NCBI GenBank assembly: GCA_016840425.1
Contig: JAEOSI010000137.1
Span: forward strand, 1 to 6,213
DNA from: Candidatus Wukongarchaeum yapensis
Lineage (GTDB): Archaea; Asgardarchaeota; Wukongarchaeia; Wukongarchaeales; Wukongarchaeaceae
Length of the DNA: 6,213 nt
Reading direction: 5' to 3'
Part shown: piece by piece, positions 242-5,813 of the stretch
Position numbering within the stretch: position 1 is the stretch's first letter
How the letters are laid out: every line of letters starts with the position of its first letter
The notes under the pieces: model-generated
Databases searched by the model: none
What the model was told of the DNA's origin: nothing
The model's input: the letters and a program-made list of their open reading frames with translations, nothing else
Made by a program: the position numbers and the translations under genes

Positions 242-1066
242 TTAGAAGAATGCATAGAAGATTAAAACTAACACGATTGTAATAATTCCCAGAAAATAAC
301 AGATTTTATCAAATGTTAAGCGTTCTGCCAACCCTAAGAGGAAATTCATCATAAAATAGCCCAAAACCGTGACTAACCCCGTTAAAGCAAAATATTCTAT
401 TGATAAATCAACATAGATCTCATTATAAATTATGTCAAAAGCGATTGCACCCAATACGGCGGGGAGGCTCATAAGAAAGCTCATCTCGAAGGCCTCTTGT
501 CTCTTAAAACCTCTTGCAAGAAAATATGTAATTGTGACGCCAGATCGACTTATTCCTGGAAGTATTGAGAATCCTTGAAAAAATCCAACCAAGAGCTCAT
601 CCGAAAATTTTCGCTCTGAAAAGGTCAATGTGTCGCTGGATTTTAATACTCCAAATCTAAGAAGACTGCCTGTCAACAGTAATGCGACACCAATAAAAAG
701 CGTGATCAACATTCCATCAAGTAAGGAAAAGCTTTCCTTTATTAGTATATAAAGAGGAATAGCGGTAACCGCTGTTGCGATAGCAGATATCACAAGAAAT
801 CTCAGCAAAGGAATATTTCTAAATGTAATTGTATCAAAGTATTTCCGGCGATATTTGAACAAAACTGCAAGAGATGTACCTAAATGAAAATAGATTGCAG
901 CCCTTAACGCTTCTGAAGCCGATTTTTGAAACACATTAACTGAAGTTAAAATCAAAAAACCTTCGGAGCTCACAGGCAACCATTCAAGAATTGCTTGTAT
1001 AATTGCTAGAATCAAATCCTCGTTGAACGACAATTGTATAACACCGATTTTTACACTATACCCCAA
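242..1066 (-). CDS. uppP: Undecaprenyl-diphosphate phosphatase (UppP/BacA family)
   Basis: Hydrophobic multi-TM 274-aa ORF with both BacA signatures: QAILEWLPVSSEG and QGFSILPGISRSGVTI, followed by EMSFLMSLPAVLGA. The true start may be the TTG at 1031-1033, which has a GGTG SD (1042-1045) 8 nt upstream. Confidence 0.93.
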   Translation of the reverse strand: MGYSVKIGVIQLSFNEDLILAIIQAILEWLPVSSEGFLILTSVNVFQKSASEALRAAIYFHLGTSLAVLFKYRRKYFDTITFRNIPLLRFLVISAIATAVTAIPLYILIKESFSLLDGMLITLFIGVALLLTGSLLRFGVLKSSDTLTFSERKFSDELLVGFFQGFSILPGISRSGVTITYFLARGFKRQEAFEMSFLMSLPAVLGAIAFDIIYNEIYVDLSIEYFALTGLVTVLGYFMMNFLLGLAERLTFDKICYFLGIITIVLVLIFYAFF

Positions 1067-1323: not shown

Positions 1324-2601
1324 GTGGGTAAATCGGGTTTTTCTAGGTCAAATGTGGAAAAAATGAAGGTTGAGAGAGATGTTGAAGGTCTGATAAAGGC
1401 CTTGAATTATAAGAAAGATCGTGATGTTAGAAGGGATGCAGCAAAAGCCCTTGGACAGATAGGAAATACGAGGAATATGGAATCGGTTATTCCCCTTGTT
1501 CAAGCACTGAAATATGAAAATGAGGAGATTAGAACAGAAGCAGCGTGGTTTCTTGAACAGATAGAAAAAGCAGATACTACGGAACCGATTATTCCTCTTA
1601 TTCAAGCATTGAAAGATAAGAAGGAGGAGGTTAGGGCAGAAGCAGCAAAAGCTATCGGAAAAATAGGGGACCAAAGAGCAACAAAACACCTCGTTAAAGC
1701 CCTAAAAGATAAAGAGAGAGACGTTAGGGCAGAAGCAGCAAAAGCTATCGGAAAAATAGGGGACCAAAGAGCAACAAAACACCTCGTTAAAGCCCTAAAA
1801 GATGAAGATGGGGATGTTAGAGTAGAAGCAGCAAAAGCTATTAGGAAAATGGGAGATCCGAGAACAATAAAACACCTCGTTAAAGCCCTAAAAGATGAAG
1901 AAGAAGATGTTCGACTACAAGCGGTGAAAGCCATCGAAAAAATAGGGGATCCGAGAACAATAAAACACCTTGTTAAAGCCCTAAAAGATGAAGATGGAGA
2001 TGTTAGAGTAGAAGCAGCAAAAGCTCTTGGAAAAATTGGAGATTTGGGAGCAACAAAACACCTTGTTAAAGCCCTAAAAGATGAAGAAGAAGATGTTCGA
2101 ATAGAAGCTGTGAAAGCTATTGGGGAGATAGGAGATCCGAGAGCAATAAAGCCCCTAATTAAAGCCTTAAAAGATAGATATAAGGATGTTTGGAAAGTTG
2201 CTAAAAAGGCTTTTGGGAAGATTAAGTTTGAAAAGGAACAATGGGATAAGTTGGCGAGAATAGGAGAGGCGACAATAGAGTCTCTTATGGAGGTAAAAAC
2301 GGATGAAATTGATGAAAGTTTCAGCCTAGCCGCCGAAACTGAAAGTATGAAGAAAGCCCCTTTTGCTGTTTCTTGCTCATATTGTGGGGCTGAAGTCCAG
2401 ATTCAAAAATGCATTGTCTGCAATCTTCCAATTTTTGATGACCTTACTAAAACCCCTTGTTGTAAAACTTATGCTCATTACGTCCATTTAAAAGACTGGT
2501 TAAAAACTAAAGGAAAATGCCCGCACTGTGGAGAAAAACTAGAAGAATGGGAAATTGAACAAAAAATACAACTAACAGAAGACTATTTAGCTAATATATA
2601 A
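1324..2601 (+). CDS. HEAT-repeat (PBS-lyase-type) protein with C-terminal RING-like zinc finger; putative E3 ubiquitin-ligase-like protein
   Basis: 425 aa. About nine HEAT units of consensus VRxxAAKA[IL]GKIGDxRAxxxL[VI]KALKD (aa 35-300). Cys/His-rich C-terminus: CSYC (351-354), CIVC (363-366), PCC (378-380), HYVH (385-388), W392, CPHC (399-402). Start is GTG 1324, or possibly ATG 1363. Confidence 0.88.
   Translation: MGKSGFSRSNVEKMKVERDVEGLIKALNYKKDRDVRRDAAKALGQIGNTRNMESVIPLVQALKYENEEIRTEAAWFLEQIEKADTTEPIIPLIQALKDKKEEVRAEAAKAIGKIGDQRATKHLVKALKDKERDVRAEAAKAIGKIGDQRATKHLVKALKDEDGDVRVEAAKAIRKMGDPRTIKHLVKALKDEEEDVRLQAVKAIEKIGDPRTIKHLVKALKDEDGDVRVEAAKALGKIGDLGATKHLVKALKDEEEDVRIEAVKAIGEIGDPRAIKPLIKALKDRYKDVWKVAKKAFGKIKFEKEQWDKLARIGEATIESLMEVKTDEIDESFSLAAETESMKKAPFAVSCSYCGAEVQIQKCIVCNLPIFDDLTKTPCCKTYAHYVHLKDWLKTKGKCPHCGEKLEEWEIEQKIQLTEDYLANI
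1630..2223 (+). repeat. Coding tandem array of 93-bp (31-aa) HEAT units
   Basis: The 'gtt' Val codon that opens each unit recurs at 1630, 1723, 1816, 1909, 2002, 2095 and 2188 (period 93). 1630-1710 and 1723-1803 are identical over 81 bp. Two more divergent 102-bp units start at 1426 and 1528. Confidence 0.97.
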
Positions 2602-2634: not shown

Positions 2635-3663
2635 TTAATAATCGCTTTTTAATGGTCTTTCTTTTAGAAGCCGCTTTACGAAGGTTATAGTGTCTTGTAA
2701 CTGGTTAGGGACTATGTTTTCTGGATTTTTCAATACTTCGATGGCTATGTGAAACTCTAAGGGCAGAGAACCTTCGTAAAACTCTTCGATCCTTGTAGAA
2801 CTCATATCATCAAGGAAACGGTTATACCCTCTTAAAAACCAGTTTAAATCCTGTTTAGTTCTTGAAAGATTTATATTCCCGCTTTTAAACTCTTGAATCA
2901 CCTGTTTTATAAAGAAAGTAGCAATGTCCTCTAAGCGACACGACTTCACGAAAGGATTAAAATTTTCAGAGCTTACAAGCCACACGATTGCACGTTCTTC
3001 TTCCTCGGGTAAAAGTTCAAAAAAGAGATTTGTACTCGTAAAATTATTAAAAGAAACCACACTACCATAAGATTTAGCAATATTGAAAATAAAACCATCA
3101 AAAAGCCTCTTTAAATCAAGTTTTTCTTCACCGGATAAAGGTAAGGGTTTTAACGTTTCAACAACTCTTTTTTCCTCCATTTCCGGATTATTTTGCTCTA
3201 TGCCTACACCGTGAAAAACAGAAAGAGCAAGACCCGCTAACTCCAACTTTTTATCATAAGGAAAAGTAGAAGACATAAAAGACTCTCCATTAAAACTCTC
3301 AAAAACCATATAACTTGAACCATATTTCAAGGGCTTTATAGCCCTAATATCCTCAAAAACATCTTCAACCCTATCGAAAAAATCTAAAGCATTTCCAAAA
3401 ATCTCTTCAGCATAACCCTTTTTACCGATTTCAAAAACTCTTAATAAAAACCTTTCAAGATATTCAGATCTTTCACTACTATACTTCACAAAAAGCCACT
3501 TTAAGTTAAGAGTAAAAGGCTTAACCTCCACATGATCCACAACAAAAAGAAGCGGCTCATCAAACCCTTTAGATATATCAGCCTTCCGAGCTTTATCAAA
3601 AAGAAAATCTTCCAAATCTTTAACAATGATTTTTAAAACACTATTGTCAATATTAACCGCCAT
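2635..3663 (-). CDS. Hypothetical protein; probable APH/choline-kinase/maltokinase-fold pseudokinase
   Basis: 342 aa, ATG start with GAGGT SD at 3674-3678. Kinase-fold motifs occur in the expected order: LFVK60, YMVFESFNGES (118-128), AGLALSVFHG (143-152), SFNNFTSTNLFF (204-215, the HGDxxxxN position), WLVSSEN (228-234, the IDxE position), RLEDIA (243-248), FLRGY (276-280). The CDS is well supported; the fold call is by eye. Confidence 0.7.
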   Translation of the reverse strand: MAVNIDNSVLKIIVKDLEDFLFDKARKADISKGFDEPLLFVVDHVEVKPFTLNLKWLFVKYSSERSEYLERFLLRVFEIGKKGYAEEIFGNALDFFDRVEDVFEDIRAIKPLKYGSSYMVFESFNGESFMSSTFPYDKKLELAGLALSVFHGVGIEQNNPEMEEKRVVETLKPLPLSGEEKLDLKRLFDGFIFNIAKSYGSVVSFNNFTSTNLFFELLPEEEERAIVWLVSSENFNPFVKSCRLEDIATFFIKQVIQEFKSGNINLSRTKQDLNWFLRGYNRFLDDMSSTRIEEFYEGSLPLEFHIAIEVLKNPENIVPNQLQDTITFVKRLLKERPLKSDY

Positions 3664-3868: not shown

Positions 3869-4513
3869 TTACTCTTCCACTTTTACGGCTAATTTTTCGA
3901 GTACAGTTTTTATTCTTCGTTCTACATCGTTAATTTTTGGAACTGCGTCTATGACTATTGCTTCTTTTTTCCCAGCAGGGATCAATATAAATCTCCCTGA
4001 TCTTAAAAGTAAGAATTCGAAAATATCTTCTAAGCTTTTTTGCACAACCATGTTAGGGGCTGGCCACCGATCAACATCTCCCAAAAATCCTTTTTTGTGG
4101 AGGAGTTCTTGGTGCGTGAGTTCCCAATAGTTGAATCTTGCTCCTACCCAGGTCAAGAATAAGACGAGTATCAATATTAACGCTATAGTTAAGTAGAAGC
4201 TTGCATCGGCAACAGCGGGTATTGTTAGGTCTATATTAAAATCTATTACTCCAGTTTCTGTGAGATATAGTATTAGCACGGCAGTTGCAAAAATCAAGGA
4301 TAATAGTGCGATTAATATGCCACGAGTAAACTCAAAAGCTACCACGAACAATAGAGCTAAGAACGAAATTAACCAAAAAGTTGCAATCGCTTCTGAACTG
4401 CCAAGATTTCGCCACTCTAGAAACGCGCTTATAAGCGAAATGAAAACTAATGGATAGAAGAACACTACTTTAGGATAACCCCTTATTGTTACCTTTTCTA
4501 TACTTTCTGACAT
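3869..4513 (-). CDS. Conserved-looking hypothetical membrane protein (about 4 TM helices) with soluble C-terminal domain, possibly bacterial-PH-like
   Basis: The ORF track starts at GTG 4582, but ATG 4511-4513 (MSESIEK) has an AAGGAGAGG SD at 4522-4530, and the extra 23 aa are low-complexity Lys/Asn. Four hydrophobic segments are followed by NYWELTHQELLHKKGFLG...DIFEFLLLRSGRFIL. Confidence 0.8.
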   Translation of the reverse strand: MSESIEKVTIRGYPKVVFFYPLVFISLISAFLEWRNLGSSEAIATFWLISFLALLFVVAFEFTRGILIALLSLIFATAVLILYLTETGVIDFNIDLTIPAVADASFYLTIALILILVLFLTWVGARFNYWELTHQELLHKKGFLGDVDRWPAPNMVVQKSLEDIFEFLLLRSGRFILIPAGKKEAIVIDAVPKINDVERRIKTVLEKLAVKVEE

Positions 4514-4582
4514 TGCATTCGCCTCTCCTTTATTTTGGTTTTTGGTTATTTTCTTCTTTTCCTTCTTAATTAAGTTTTTCAC

Positions 4583-4754: not shown

Positions 4755-5813
4755 TTAGGTGTAATATACTTCCTTCTCTTCTTCTTCTATTGGGCCTTTT
4801 ATTGGGATTTTTGTGTTGCATTGGGGGCATGTTGCATCCTTGTTTAGGTCGTATGCTCCTATTCTGAAGCCTATTCTTCTTATGAGTTGTTTTCCACAGT
4901 TGGGGCAGTAGGTGTTTTCACTATTGTGACCGGGAATGTTTCCAGCGTAGACGTATTTTTCGCCTTGTTCTTTTGCTATTTTCATGGCTTTTTCTATGGT
5001 TTTTGTGGGGGTTGGGGGGGCGTCAAGAAGTTTAAAGTGTGGGTAGAATCGGGAGAAGTGGTGGGGTATTTCTGGACCTAGGTTTTCGACCACCCATTTT
5101 GTTAAGGCTTTCAACTCTTCTTCACTGTCATTATAGCCGGGTATTAGGAGGGTGGTTATTTCTAGATGGATTCCTTTTTCCACCATTGTTTTGCATGTTT
5201 CTAAAACTGGTTGGAGTTTTGATTTTGTGATTTTACGGTAAAATTCTTCGTTGAAGCTTTTAACGTCTACGTTGGCTGCGTTTATGTAGGGGGCTATTTC
5301 GTTTAGGGGTTCTTGGGTTATGAAGCCGTTGGTGACGAGTATGTTAAACAGGCCTTCTTCTTTAGCTATTTTTGCTGTATCGTAAACAAATTCATACCAG
5401 ATGATTGGCTCGTTATAAGTATAAGCTATGCTTTTACAAGGGCTTTTCTTTGCTTTTTTAACGATTTCTTTCGGCGTTGTTTCAACAAGTCTATATTCTT
5501 CAGGTTTTGCTCTGGCAATCGTGAAGTTTTGGCAGAATAAACAGTAAAGGTTGCAACCGATAGTTCCTAAGCTATAAGCGCAACTTCCTGGCCAGAAATG
5601 GAATAAAGGCTTTTTTTCGATGGGATCTGGGAAAGCAGAGGATACGAGTCCATAGTTTAAAGTGTAAAGTTTTCCTTCTTTGTTTTCTCTAACCCCGCAG
5701 AATCCCCTTTTACCTTCGCGGATTTTACAGTATTGGGGGCAGAGAGAGCATCGCACTGTTTTATCTTCTAAGGATTCCCAAAACCTTGCTTCATACATGC
5801 TCAAATCAATCAC
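4755..5813 (-). CDS. amrS: AmmeMemoRadiSam system radical SAM enzyme (AmrS)
   Basis: Radical SAM motif GC87NLYC91LFC94QN; family N-terminus CSLCPQYC-x9-CGVREN and DPIEKKPLFHFWPG; IAYTYNEP; C-terminal NTYCPNCG...CPQC. Start is GTG 5813, or ATG 5796-5798 preceded by a GAAGTGAT SD-like sequence. Confidence 0.93.
   Translation of the reverse strand: MIDLSMYEARFWESLEDKTVRCSLCPQYCKIREGKRGFCGVRENKEGKLYTLNYGLVSSAFPDPIEKKPLFHFWPGSCAYSLGTIGCNLYCLFCQNFTIARAKPEEYRLVETTPKEIVKKAKKSPCKSIAYTYNEPIIWYEFVYDTAKIAKEEGLFNILVTNGFITQEPLNEIAPYINAANVDVKSFNEEFYRKITKSKLQPVLETCKTMVEKGIHLEITTLLIPGYNDSEEELKALTKWVVENLGPEIPHHFSRFYPHFKLLDAPPTPTKTIEKAMKIAKEQGEKYVYAGNIPGHNSENTYCPNCGKQLIRRIGFRIGAYDLNKDATCPQCNTKIPIKGPIEEEEKEVYYT

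Follow-up and report, generated by a model that had tools for sequence, protein, structure and literature searches.

A HEAT-repeat protein with a C-terminal RING-type finger in an Asgard archaeon: a candidate single-chain ubiquitin ligase from a variable family

Does an Asgard archaeon encode a ubiquitin ligase (E3) in which a repeat scaffold and a RING finger lie on one chain? The question is raised by a 6,213-nucleotide stretch of Candidatus Wukongarchaeum yapensis (GenBank assembly GCA_016840425.1, contig JAEOSI010000137.1), in which the original prediction, made from the letters alone, had proposed that one gene joins a HEAT alpha-solenoid to a RING-like finger in the manner of eukaryotic E3 ligases. 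This window is the entire 6.2-kb contig (C139) and belongs to a genome bin of 2.16 Mb that is 92% complete. The encoded protein, hereafter P0001, consists from N to C terminus of a HEAT solenoid, a linker, half of a zinc ribbon, a RING and a C-terminal helix. Judged from sequence comparison and modelling, P0001 is probably (roughly 60%) a soluble single-chain RING-type E3 candidate of the substrate-adaptor kind, one more member of a large and partly described Asgard family.

The single sequence left the fold of the C-terminal Cys/His cluster unsettled, because the Pfam model zf-RING_2 (PF13639) stayed under its cut-off (23.9 bits for 2407-2529 in the six-frame search) and several short zinc-ribbon Pfam models rated about equal to it on P0001 alone, all under cut-off as well. 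Prok-RING_1 (PF14446, defined here by its Pfam name and the citations in PMC4678705) did not reach E<=0.01 on P0001 itself. The zf-RING_2 threshold was passed by relatives, namely the genome's own srfp-type RING (31.6 bits) and P0026 (27.7 bits), and among 121 family modules zf-RING_2 matched 114 and Prok-RING_1 matched 88 (best 6.6e-11). The family profile built on these 121 sequences matched the RING-H2 E3 structures of RNF126, RNF24, EL5, AMFR, Arkadia/RNF165 and RNF38 at 4e-8 to 5e-6, and an RNF4 tandem construct at 2.6e-9.

The AlphaFold2 (AF2) model of residues 338-425, computed with the 121-sequence alignment, had a predicted local distance difference test score (pLDDT) of 81.9 and a predicted template modelling score (pTM) of 0.65, and it combines two hairpins with a helix at 386-396 in the middle and a turn at the C-terminus. 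Foldseek searches of this model against PDB and Swiss-Prot models, together with VIA re-alignment, returned RING/U-box domains only. The Prp19 U-box was aligned at Z 8.2 with a root-mean-square deviation of 1.6 Å over 56 residues, the WDR19 C-terminal domain at Z 7.4 over 73 residues, and TRAF6, Rad18, PEX10, RNF4, RNF165 and CHIP at Z 6-7.5. BLASTP also related P0001 to the operonic srfp of its own genome (3e-8, 34% identity over 53 residues); the two proteins co-align in the family alignments, and the srfp passes the cut-offs of both zf-rbx1 and zf-RING_2. Family profiles, the AF2, Foldseek and VIA results and the srfp paralogy all indicate RING/U-box, and on this evidence the C-terminal domain is to be read as a cross-brace finger of RING type and not as a simple zinc ribbon. 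A PHD finger (C4HC3) was rejected on the sequence pattern, which has a His as its sixth ligand and places the Trp six residues ahead of ligand 7, as in RING-H2, and not two. The predicted cross-brace RING was thus upheld through the family profile and the model, whereas the single sequence scored under the zf-RING_2 cut-off and the ligand register was the C4H2C2 type of srfp, not C3H2C3.

The residues themselves were located by script at C363, C366, C379, C380, H385, H388, W392, C399, H401 and C402, exactly as had been predicted, and an upstream pair, C351-x2-C354, which had not been listed, was found in addition. The RING pattern reads C-x2-C-x12-C-C-x4-H-x2-H-x10-C-x2-C, with Cys as ligand 4 and His as ligand 6. 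The canonical C3H2C3 spacing (C-x2-C-x9-39-C-x1-3-H-x2-3-H-x2-C-x4-48-C-x2-C) is not matched by P0001, which has eight candidate ligands in the register of srfp (C-x2-C ... C-x2-C-x4-H-x2-H-x10-C-P-x-C) and lacks only the Cys that should open the middle pair (T377), with C379 close by. In the 121-sequence alignment C363, C380, H385, H388, C399 and C402 are invariant, and C351, C354, C366, W392 and P400 are kept in at least 90% of the rows. Such conservation of the ligands through the family led us to reject a chance Cys pattern. Most relatives place ligand 3 at the column of T377, where 103 of the 121 rows have Cys in a C-P-x-C motif, and 19 of the 121 have the 'TPCC' form; in this subgroup, to which P0001 belongs, C379 presumably takes over as ligand 3. 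By the same alignment, we infer that a first zinc site would be formed by C363, C366, H385 and H388 and a second by C379 and/or C380 with C399 and C402.

The original prediction had also pointed to the Trp and the C-P-x-C end as an E2-binding surface, and this surface proved to be strongly conserved. Position 365 is Val in 95 and Ile in 24 of the 121 rows (119 together), position 392 is Trp in 112 and Tyr in 7, and position 400 is Pro in 120. These three positions correspond to E2-contacting residues in solved RING-E2 complexes (c-Cbl, RNF4). The substrate-adaptor E3 reading is favoured because these E2-contact positions are kept across the family.

A ligase of this kind requires a ubiquitin system, and the genome was searched for one as had been proposed. 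Ubiquitin, E2, a ubiquitin E2 variant (UEV), E1-like ThiF proteins, JAB proteases and an operonic RING were all found. The ubiquitin, encoded at 16045-16278 of contig C109, has 77 residues, ends in GG and scored 40 bits; it lies in a cluster with the srfp RING and the UEV, in which the motif is HPN...S, with Ser replacing the catalytic Cys. After the UEV gene we noted Vps28-like, steadiness-box-like and EAP30-like open reading frames (ORFs), named from a reading of the sequence. The only catalytic UBC protein found has 161 residues and is encoded at 1183-1668 of contig C135 (UQ_con 108.9 bits, HPN..C); two short ORFs beside its gene (G000:C135:158-827, L001) appear, judged from the sequence alone, to be fragments of an IS200/IS605-type TnpB (OrfB) transposase-like protein. 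There were three matches to the E1-like ThiF family, contigs C232, where the protein has 363 residues, and C119 among their locations, one of them fused to Prok-JAB, and a JAB/MPN protein is encoded on C244. The genome has a single ubiquitin, a single catalytic E2 and eight or more RING proteins. Because the domain models as a RING and the genome encodes an E2 and ubiquitin, neither of the two outcomes named beforehand as fatal to the prediction, a non-RING zinc ribbon or a genome without an E2/ubiquitin-like system, was observed.

Under the substrate-adaptor reading, the HEAT solenoid would bind a substrate or partner protein, and the linker (residues 307-347, modelled at low confidence) would tether the RING to it. 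The surface formed by V365, W392 and P400 may recruit the ubiquitin-charged E2 (the UBC protein of C135), and the RING could then promote attachment of the C109 ubiquitin to lysine residues, either on the bound substrate or on P0001 itself. The E1-like ThiF proteins (C232, C119) and the JAB proteases (C244, C119) would complete the cycle. The adaptor logic is seen in the paralogues and relatives, in which the same module stands behind HEAT, TPR, Kelch, VWA/PKD/Ig, propeller-like plus transmembrane (TM), and winged-helix-like N-termini.

Several points weigh against this reading. On zf-RING_2 P0001 itself obtained 19.7, 18.6 and 21.3 bits against a gathering threshold of 27.3. The Cys that serves the family as ligand 3 is Thr at position 377, so the adjacent Cys pair must substitute, and the zinc ribbon of P0001 has lost two of its four ligands by deletion of the second CxxC knuckle. 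In many active RINGs a linchpin Arg or Lys follows the last Cys; P0001 has Gly403 there, at a position that is variable in the family (K, Q, R, G). The gene is unlinked to ubiquitin, E1, E2 or JAB genes, which lie on other contigs. Finally, the best-scoring solved relatives include the scaffolding RINGs of IFT-A and GATOR2, whose function is largely assembly and not catalysis.

These points are partly taken up by the strongest alternative, which we regard as unlikely but deserving of real weight, namely that the RING is non-catalytic and serves for assembly or interaction, as RINGs do in IFT-A, GATOR2/SEA and HOPS/CORVET, dimerising with a ribbon-plus-RING partner or binding a peptide, with the HEAT protein as a scaffold subunit. 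It would agree with the Gly at the linchpin, the degenerate ribbon and the shifted Cys pair, and with the best single-domain profile and Foldseek matches, which are to the zinc finger (ZF) plus RING of IFT144/WDR19, GATOR2 WDR24, WDR59 and MIOS ranking lower. RINGs of the IFT-A/GATOR2 type mediate subunit contacts (PMC4678705), and the seven other module proteins of the genome are potential mutual pairing partners. However, the triad V/I365, W392 and P400 is almost invariant in the family while the aligned IFT144 has lost the His ligands and the Trp, and the closest relatives that have been studied experimentally, the archaeal srfp proteins, are catalytic E3s.

A second alternative, which we consider very improbable, takes the Cys/His cluster as an ordinary zinc ribbon or treble-clef finger on a PBS-lyase-like HEAT protein, with a role outside the ubiquitin system such as nucleic-acid or metal binding. 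The equal rating of short zinc-ribbon models on the single sequence, the resemblance of the HEAT units to CpcE/NblB-type lyase repeats and the absence of a ubiquitin-system neighbour would suit it. On the other side, family profiles and model give RING/U-box consistently with no ribbon-only fold ranking high, the H-x2-H-x3-W-x6-C-P-x-C signature is kept in hundreds of relatives, the paralogy to the operonic srfp is significant, and the lyase models of NCBIfam fall well short of their thresholds (120 vs 330 bits).

Orthologues show how far the protein is maintained. Near-identical ones were found in P0002 (394 residues) and at L017, in a Hodarchaeota metagenome-assembled genome; P0002 differs from P0001 (425 residues) by exactly one HEAT unit fewer. 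The named genomes nearest by matches to P0001 were 'Candidatus Hodarchaeota' (87% identity, orthologue beside BacA) and Helarchaeota. The HEAT-RING architecture with an intact frame occurs in at least three assemblies, with modules 87-96% identical. A search of genome contigs for related loci confirmed four, by a back-translated pattern that is narrow and does not measure distribution; an Alistipes match (L020), only 18 residues long, was set aside as due to chance. An assembly chimera was rejected, since three assemblies share the architecture and positions 2071-2735 are spanned by DNA contigs. Closely matching, intact DNA is held in metagenomes of about nine studies of marine sediment, mangrove, seawater and soil. 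Contigs from RNA libraries (one metatranscriptome, X20) cover 1538-1748 and 2071-2272 at 95-99% identity; DNA carry-over is possible there, and they were not used as evidence of expression. At least 90% of the relatives in the family alignments have the full ribbon. The second-knuckle deletion is found also in the orthologues P0002, P0024 and L017, so that it is a genuine and stable feature of this lineage. The least probable alternative of all, that P0001 is a recently shuffled and decaying copy without maintained function (HEAT amplified, half of the ribbon deleted, ligand 3 lost), could call on the young 93-nucleotide repeats with their varying copy number between close relatives, on the deleted knuckle and on T377 in place of the usual Cys, but it is opposed by the intact frame in several assemblies, by the close metagenomic sequences and by the retention of all invariant family ligands except position 377.

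A profile of the modules of P0001's own genome, run against 1.84 billion cluster representatives, matched 4179 at E<=1e-3, of which 805 also passed E<=1e-10. The module consensus is a ribbon C-x2-C-x9-11-C-x2-C, a linker of 5-6 residues and C-x2-C-x12-18-(C-x2-C or CC)-x4-H-x2-H-x10-C-P-x-C, and it nearly always forms the very C-terminal end of the chain, in proteins that range from 88 to 1693 residues. It was present in 33 of the 41 genomes of the phylum (the window's own included) in 1-29 copies each. Some genomes of Asgard relatives (G013 and G037) have 16-29 copies; many of those of G013 lie within about 1.68-2.36 Mb of a single contig, which suggests a local expansion or an island. Seven further proteins of the window's own genome carry the module C-terminally (on C57, C181, C197, C104, C152, C117 and C109), behind the N-termini given in Table 1. 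The close module relatives P0054 (901 residues), P0010 (798 residues) and P0048 (1296 residues) have Kelch propellers (Kelch_1, 1.6e-62), VWA plus PKD plus Ig domains, and bacterial TSP3 repeats; Kelch plus RING is another eukaryote-like E3 theme. The family is thus very large and mostly Asgard, with a ribbon and a C4H2C2 RING behind highly variable N-termini, and P0001 is a divergent member of it.

The N-terminal half of P0001 was predicted to contain about nine HEAT units, and a hidden Markov model made from the protein's own repeats counted nine: seven near-identical units of 31 residues at 90-306 and two weaker ones at 23-74. Pfam gave HEAT_2 at 1.7e-62 and HEAT_PBS at 1e-50, and the full-length AF2 model from the single sequence had helix pairs at 8-300 with pLDDT >90 across about 120-280. 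The NCBIfam matches of the array, far under cut-off, were of CpcE/CpcF/NblB type, and the array is therefore of the common prokaryotic PBS-lyase type. The 93-nucleotide DNA repeat array beneath the units is young, and its copy number differs from that of the orthologue. Every contig set breaks up the HEAT array and so gives no reading of copy-number variation; a single 73-nucleotide 'skip' joint in X12 was disregarded, one of its sides being 20 nucleotides long and inside the repeat array. At the end of the linker the motif LAAETE..KAP is common to the membrane-anchored paralogues (P0003 and the C181 protein).

A maximum-likelihood tree of the modules indicated how the HEAT array joined the RING. 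P0001 fell within a supported clade (100/97) whose other 12 members have VWA/PKD/Ig, TSP3, Kelch or propeller-like plus TM N-termini. The other three HEAT-bearing representatives (P0141 and P0151; P0026) fell in two other supported clades, which means that HEAT joined the module at least twice, or three times by parsimony. When the N-terminal regions were scanned (n=82), HEAT was found in 5, TPR in 4 and beta-helix in 3, and most had no Pfam match. Because HEAT joined repeatedly across clades, the fusion arose recently, by domain shuffling within a family of candidate E3s that is expanding. The claim of a eukaryote-style solenoid design was accordingly abandoned: by these sequence comparisons, HEAT plus RING is not a conserved or singular design of that style, but a prokaryotic-type array recently shuffled onto an Asgard RING.

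The features of the locus and of the related loci are collected in Table 1. Divergent from the HEAT-RING gene lies BacA, and this adjacency is kept in three related genomes (the window, L016 and L017). The order of the two family-less ORFs beside the HEAT-RING gene is preserved in GCA_976602455.1 (L016) and not in the Hodarchaeota genome L017. No AmmeMemo or Memo partner gene for the radical SAM enzyme was found within the window, and no functional link to P0001 came from its neighbours (BacA, the two family-less ORFs and the AmmeMemoRadiSam enzyme).

Table 1 Features of the HEAT-RING gene, its surroundings and related loci in the same genome (positions of the window unless a contig is named)
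Feature	Position	Strand	Description
HEAT-RING ORF (P0001)	1324..2601	+	complete, 425 aa, GTG start, TAA stop
HEAT alpha-solenoid	1390..2241	+	aa 23-306, 9 units
93-nt tandem DNA repeat beneath HEAT units	1612..2175	+	6.1 copies, 82% identity
Acidic linker, probably flexible	2242..2364	+	aa 307-347, low pLDDT in full-length model
Remnant zinc ribbon	2365..2400	+	aa 348-359, first knuckle C351-x2-C354 only; AF2 beta-hairpin 348-350/357-359
RING-H2-like finger	2407..2538	+	aa 362-405; C363, C366, C379/C380, H385, H388, C399, C402; V365, W392, P400
C-terminal tail	2539..2598	+	aa 406-425; conserved L406 and I411, then predicted helix
BacA undecaprenyl-diphosphatase	242-1066	-	divergent from HEAT-RING gene
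Soluble protein ORF	2635-3663	-	342 aa, no Pfam or NCBIfam match
ORF with several hydrophobic segments	3869-4582	-	237 aa, no Pfam or NCBIfam match
AmmeMemoRadiSam-system radical SAM enzyme	4755-5813	-	TIGR04337, 401 bits; C-terminal CxxC...CxxC zinc ribbon
Ubiquitin/ESCRT cluster	G000:C109:16045-19997 (L003, L008)		77-aa ubiquitin, 116-aa srfp RING, 157-aa coiled-coil, 271-aa UEV
Prok-JAB and ThiF/E1-like fusion	G000:C119:1-1656 (L007)		552 aa, by Pfam
Paralogue N-terminus	C57		propeller-like repeats and TM helix
Paralogue N-termini	C181, C197		TM helix only
Paralogue N-terminus	C104		TPR
Paralogue N-terminus	C152		repeated winged-helix-like units
Paralogue	C117		short protein
Paralogue	C109		116-aa RING, no ribbon

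RING E3s are catalogued among the eukaryotic signature proteins of Asgard archaea, and an October 2026 preprint names 'RING-type E3 ligases' among alpha-solenoid clusters exclusive to Asgard archaea and eukaryotes. The architecture class has thus already been noted, and Prok-RING_1 covers most of the family. The HEAT fusion alone is an unsurprising, lineage-specific variant. As a candidate E3, P0001 would be a clear case of the logic of a substrate-binding repeat domain plus a RING, and its occurrence in a genome with a single ubiquitin, a single catalytic E2 and several RING proteins suggests that E3s had started to diversify by domain shuffling ahead of eukaryogenesis. P0001 is a small, soluble protein that can easily be tested with the E1, E2 and ubiquitin of its genome.

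Among known systems the nearest is the archaeal srfp. That of Caldiarchaeum subterraneum has an offset C3/C4 register, with a Cys pair in place of the canonical C-x-H, and is an active E3 in vitro (PMC5654768); a Helarchaeial cascade of E1, E2 and RING E3 has also been reconstituted in vitro (bioRxiv 10.1101/2023.07.25.550441). P0001 shares with srfp a Cys pair, presumably ligands 3 and 4, followed by x4-H-x2-H-x3-W-x6-C-P-x-C, and its genome has the cognate set of ubiquitin, E1 and E2. It differs in lying outside the ubiquitin operon, in its length of 425 residues with HEAT array and remnant ribbon against a bare RING of about 100 residues, and in the contraction of the C-x2-C of ligands 3 and 4 to CC. 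With the eukaryotic RING-H2 E3s (RNF126, RNF24, EL5, Arkadia/RNF165, AMFR, RNF38 and RNF4) it has in common the cross-brace fold, the hydrophobic residue after ligand 1, the Trp of the central helix and the C-P-x-C end, and unlike them it is C4H2C2 and not C3H2C3, has no linchpin Arg and scores as a single sequence under the Pfam cut-off. The plant U-box/ARM proteins (PUB) resemble it in combining an alpha-solenoid with a RING/U-box fold, and Pfam ARM_PUB matched P0001 weakly (28.2 vs 33 bits); their U-box, however, is N-terminal, which reverses the order, and zinc-free, and no specific sequence relationship was found.

The protocoatomer-type C-termini (IFT144/WDR19, IFT122, GATOR2 WDR24/WDR59/MIOS, HOPS/CORVET Vps11/18 and alpha-COP) are like the family in having the ribbon directly before the RING, with a linker of 5-6 residues, where a repeat protein reaches its very C-terminal end. 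The family profile spans ribbon and RING in IFT144/WDR19 (8f5o_F, 2.6e-10; WDR19, 1e-8) and also in IFT122, and it matched GATOR2 WDR24, WDR59 and MIOS at 3e-7 to 1e-4. WDR19 ranks first in Foldseek, the 'T-x-P-C-C' variant occurs in both the Asgard family and the coat-type RINGs, and Pfam zf-RING_16, zinc_ribbon_16 and Zf_IFT144_1st match 61, 45 and 7 family members. The structure paper on IFT-A had likened its ZF+RING C-termini to those of COPI, HOPS, CORVET and GATOR2, and a weak HHpred link from the alpha-COP RING to Prok-RING_1 has been reported (PMC4678705). In a limited library we found no literature linking the Asgard ribbon plus RING to the C-termini of IFT-A or GATOR2, and such a link may be published. 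It is tentatively conceivable, at well below even odds, that by common descent the Asgard ribbon plus RING is the prokaryotic antecedent of the ZF+RING of IFT-A (IFT144/IFT122) and GATOR2/SEA, and perhaps of HOPS/CORVET and alpha-COP, with the caveat that Cys-rich profiles can inflate scores and that the juxtaposition of ribbon and RING could be convergent. If it were true, the fusions of the Asgard module to solenoids (HEAT, TPR) and propeller-type repeats (Kelch, C57) would show coat building blocks already combining in the presence of a working ubiquitin system. The similarity itself offers a lead, open to testing, on where the C-terminal domains of coat proteins came from. P0001 itself is unlike the protocoatomer-type proteins in having no beta-propeller, a short PBS-type HEAT array rather than a TPR-like solenoid, and only half a ribbon; and the E2-contact residues and His ligands that IFT144 has lost are retained in the Asgard family.

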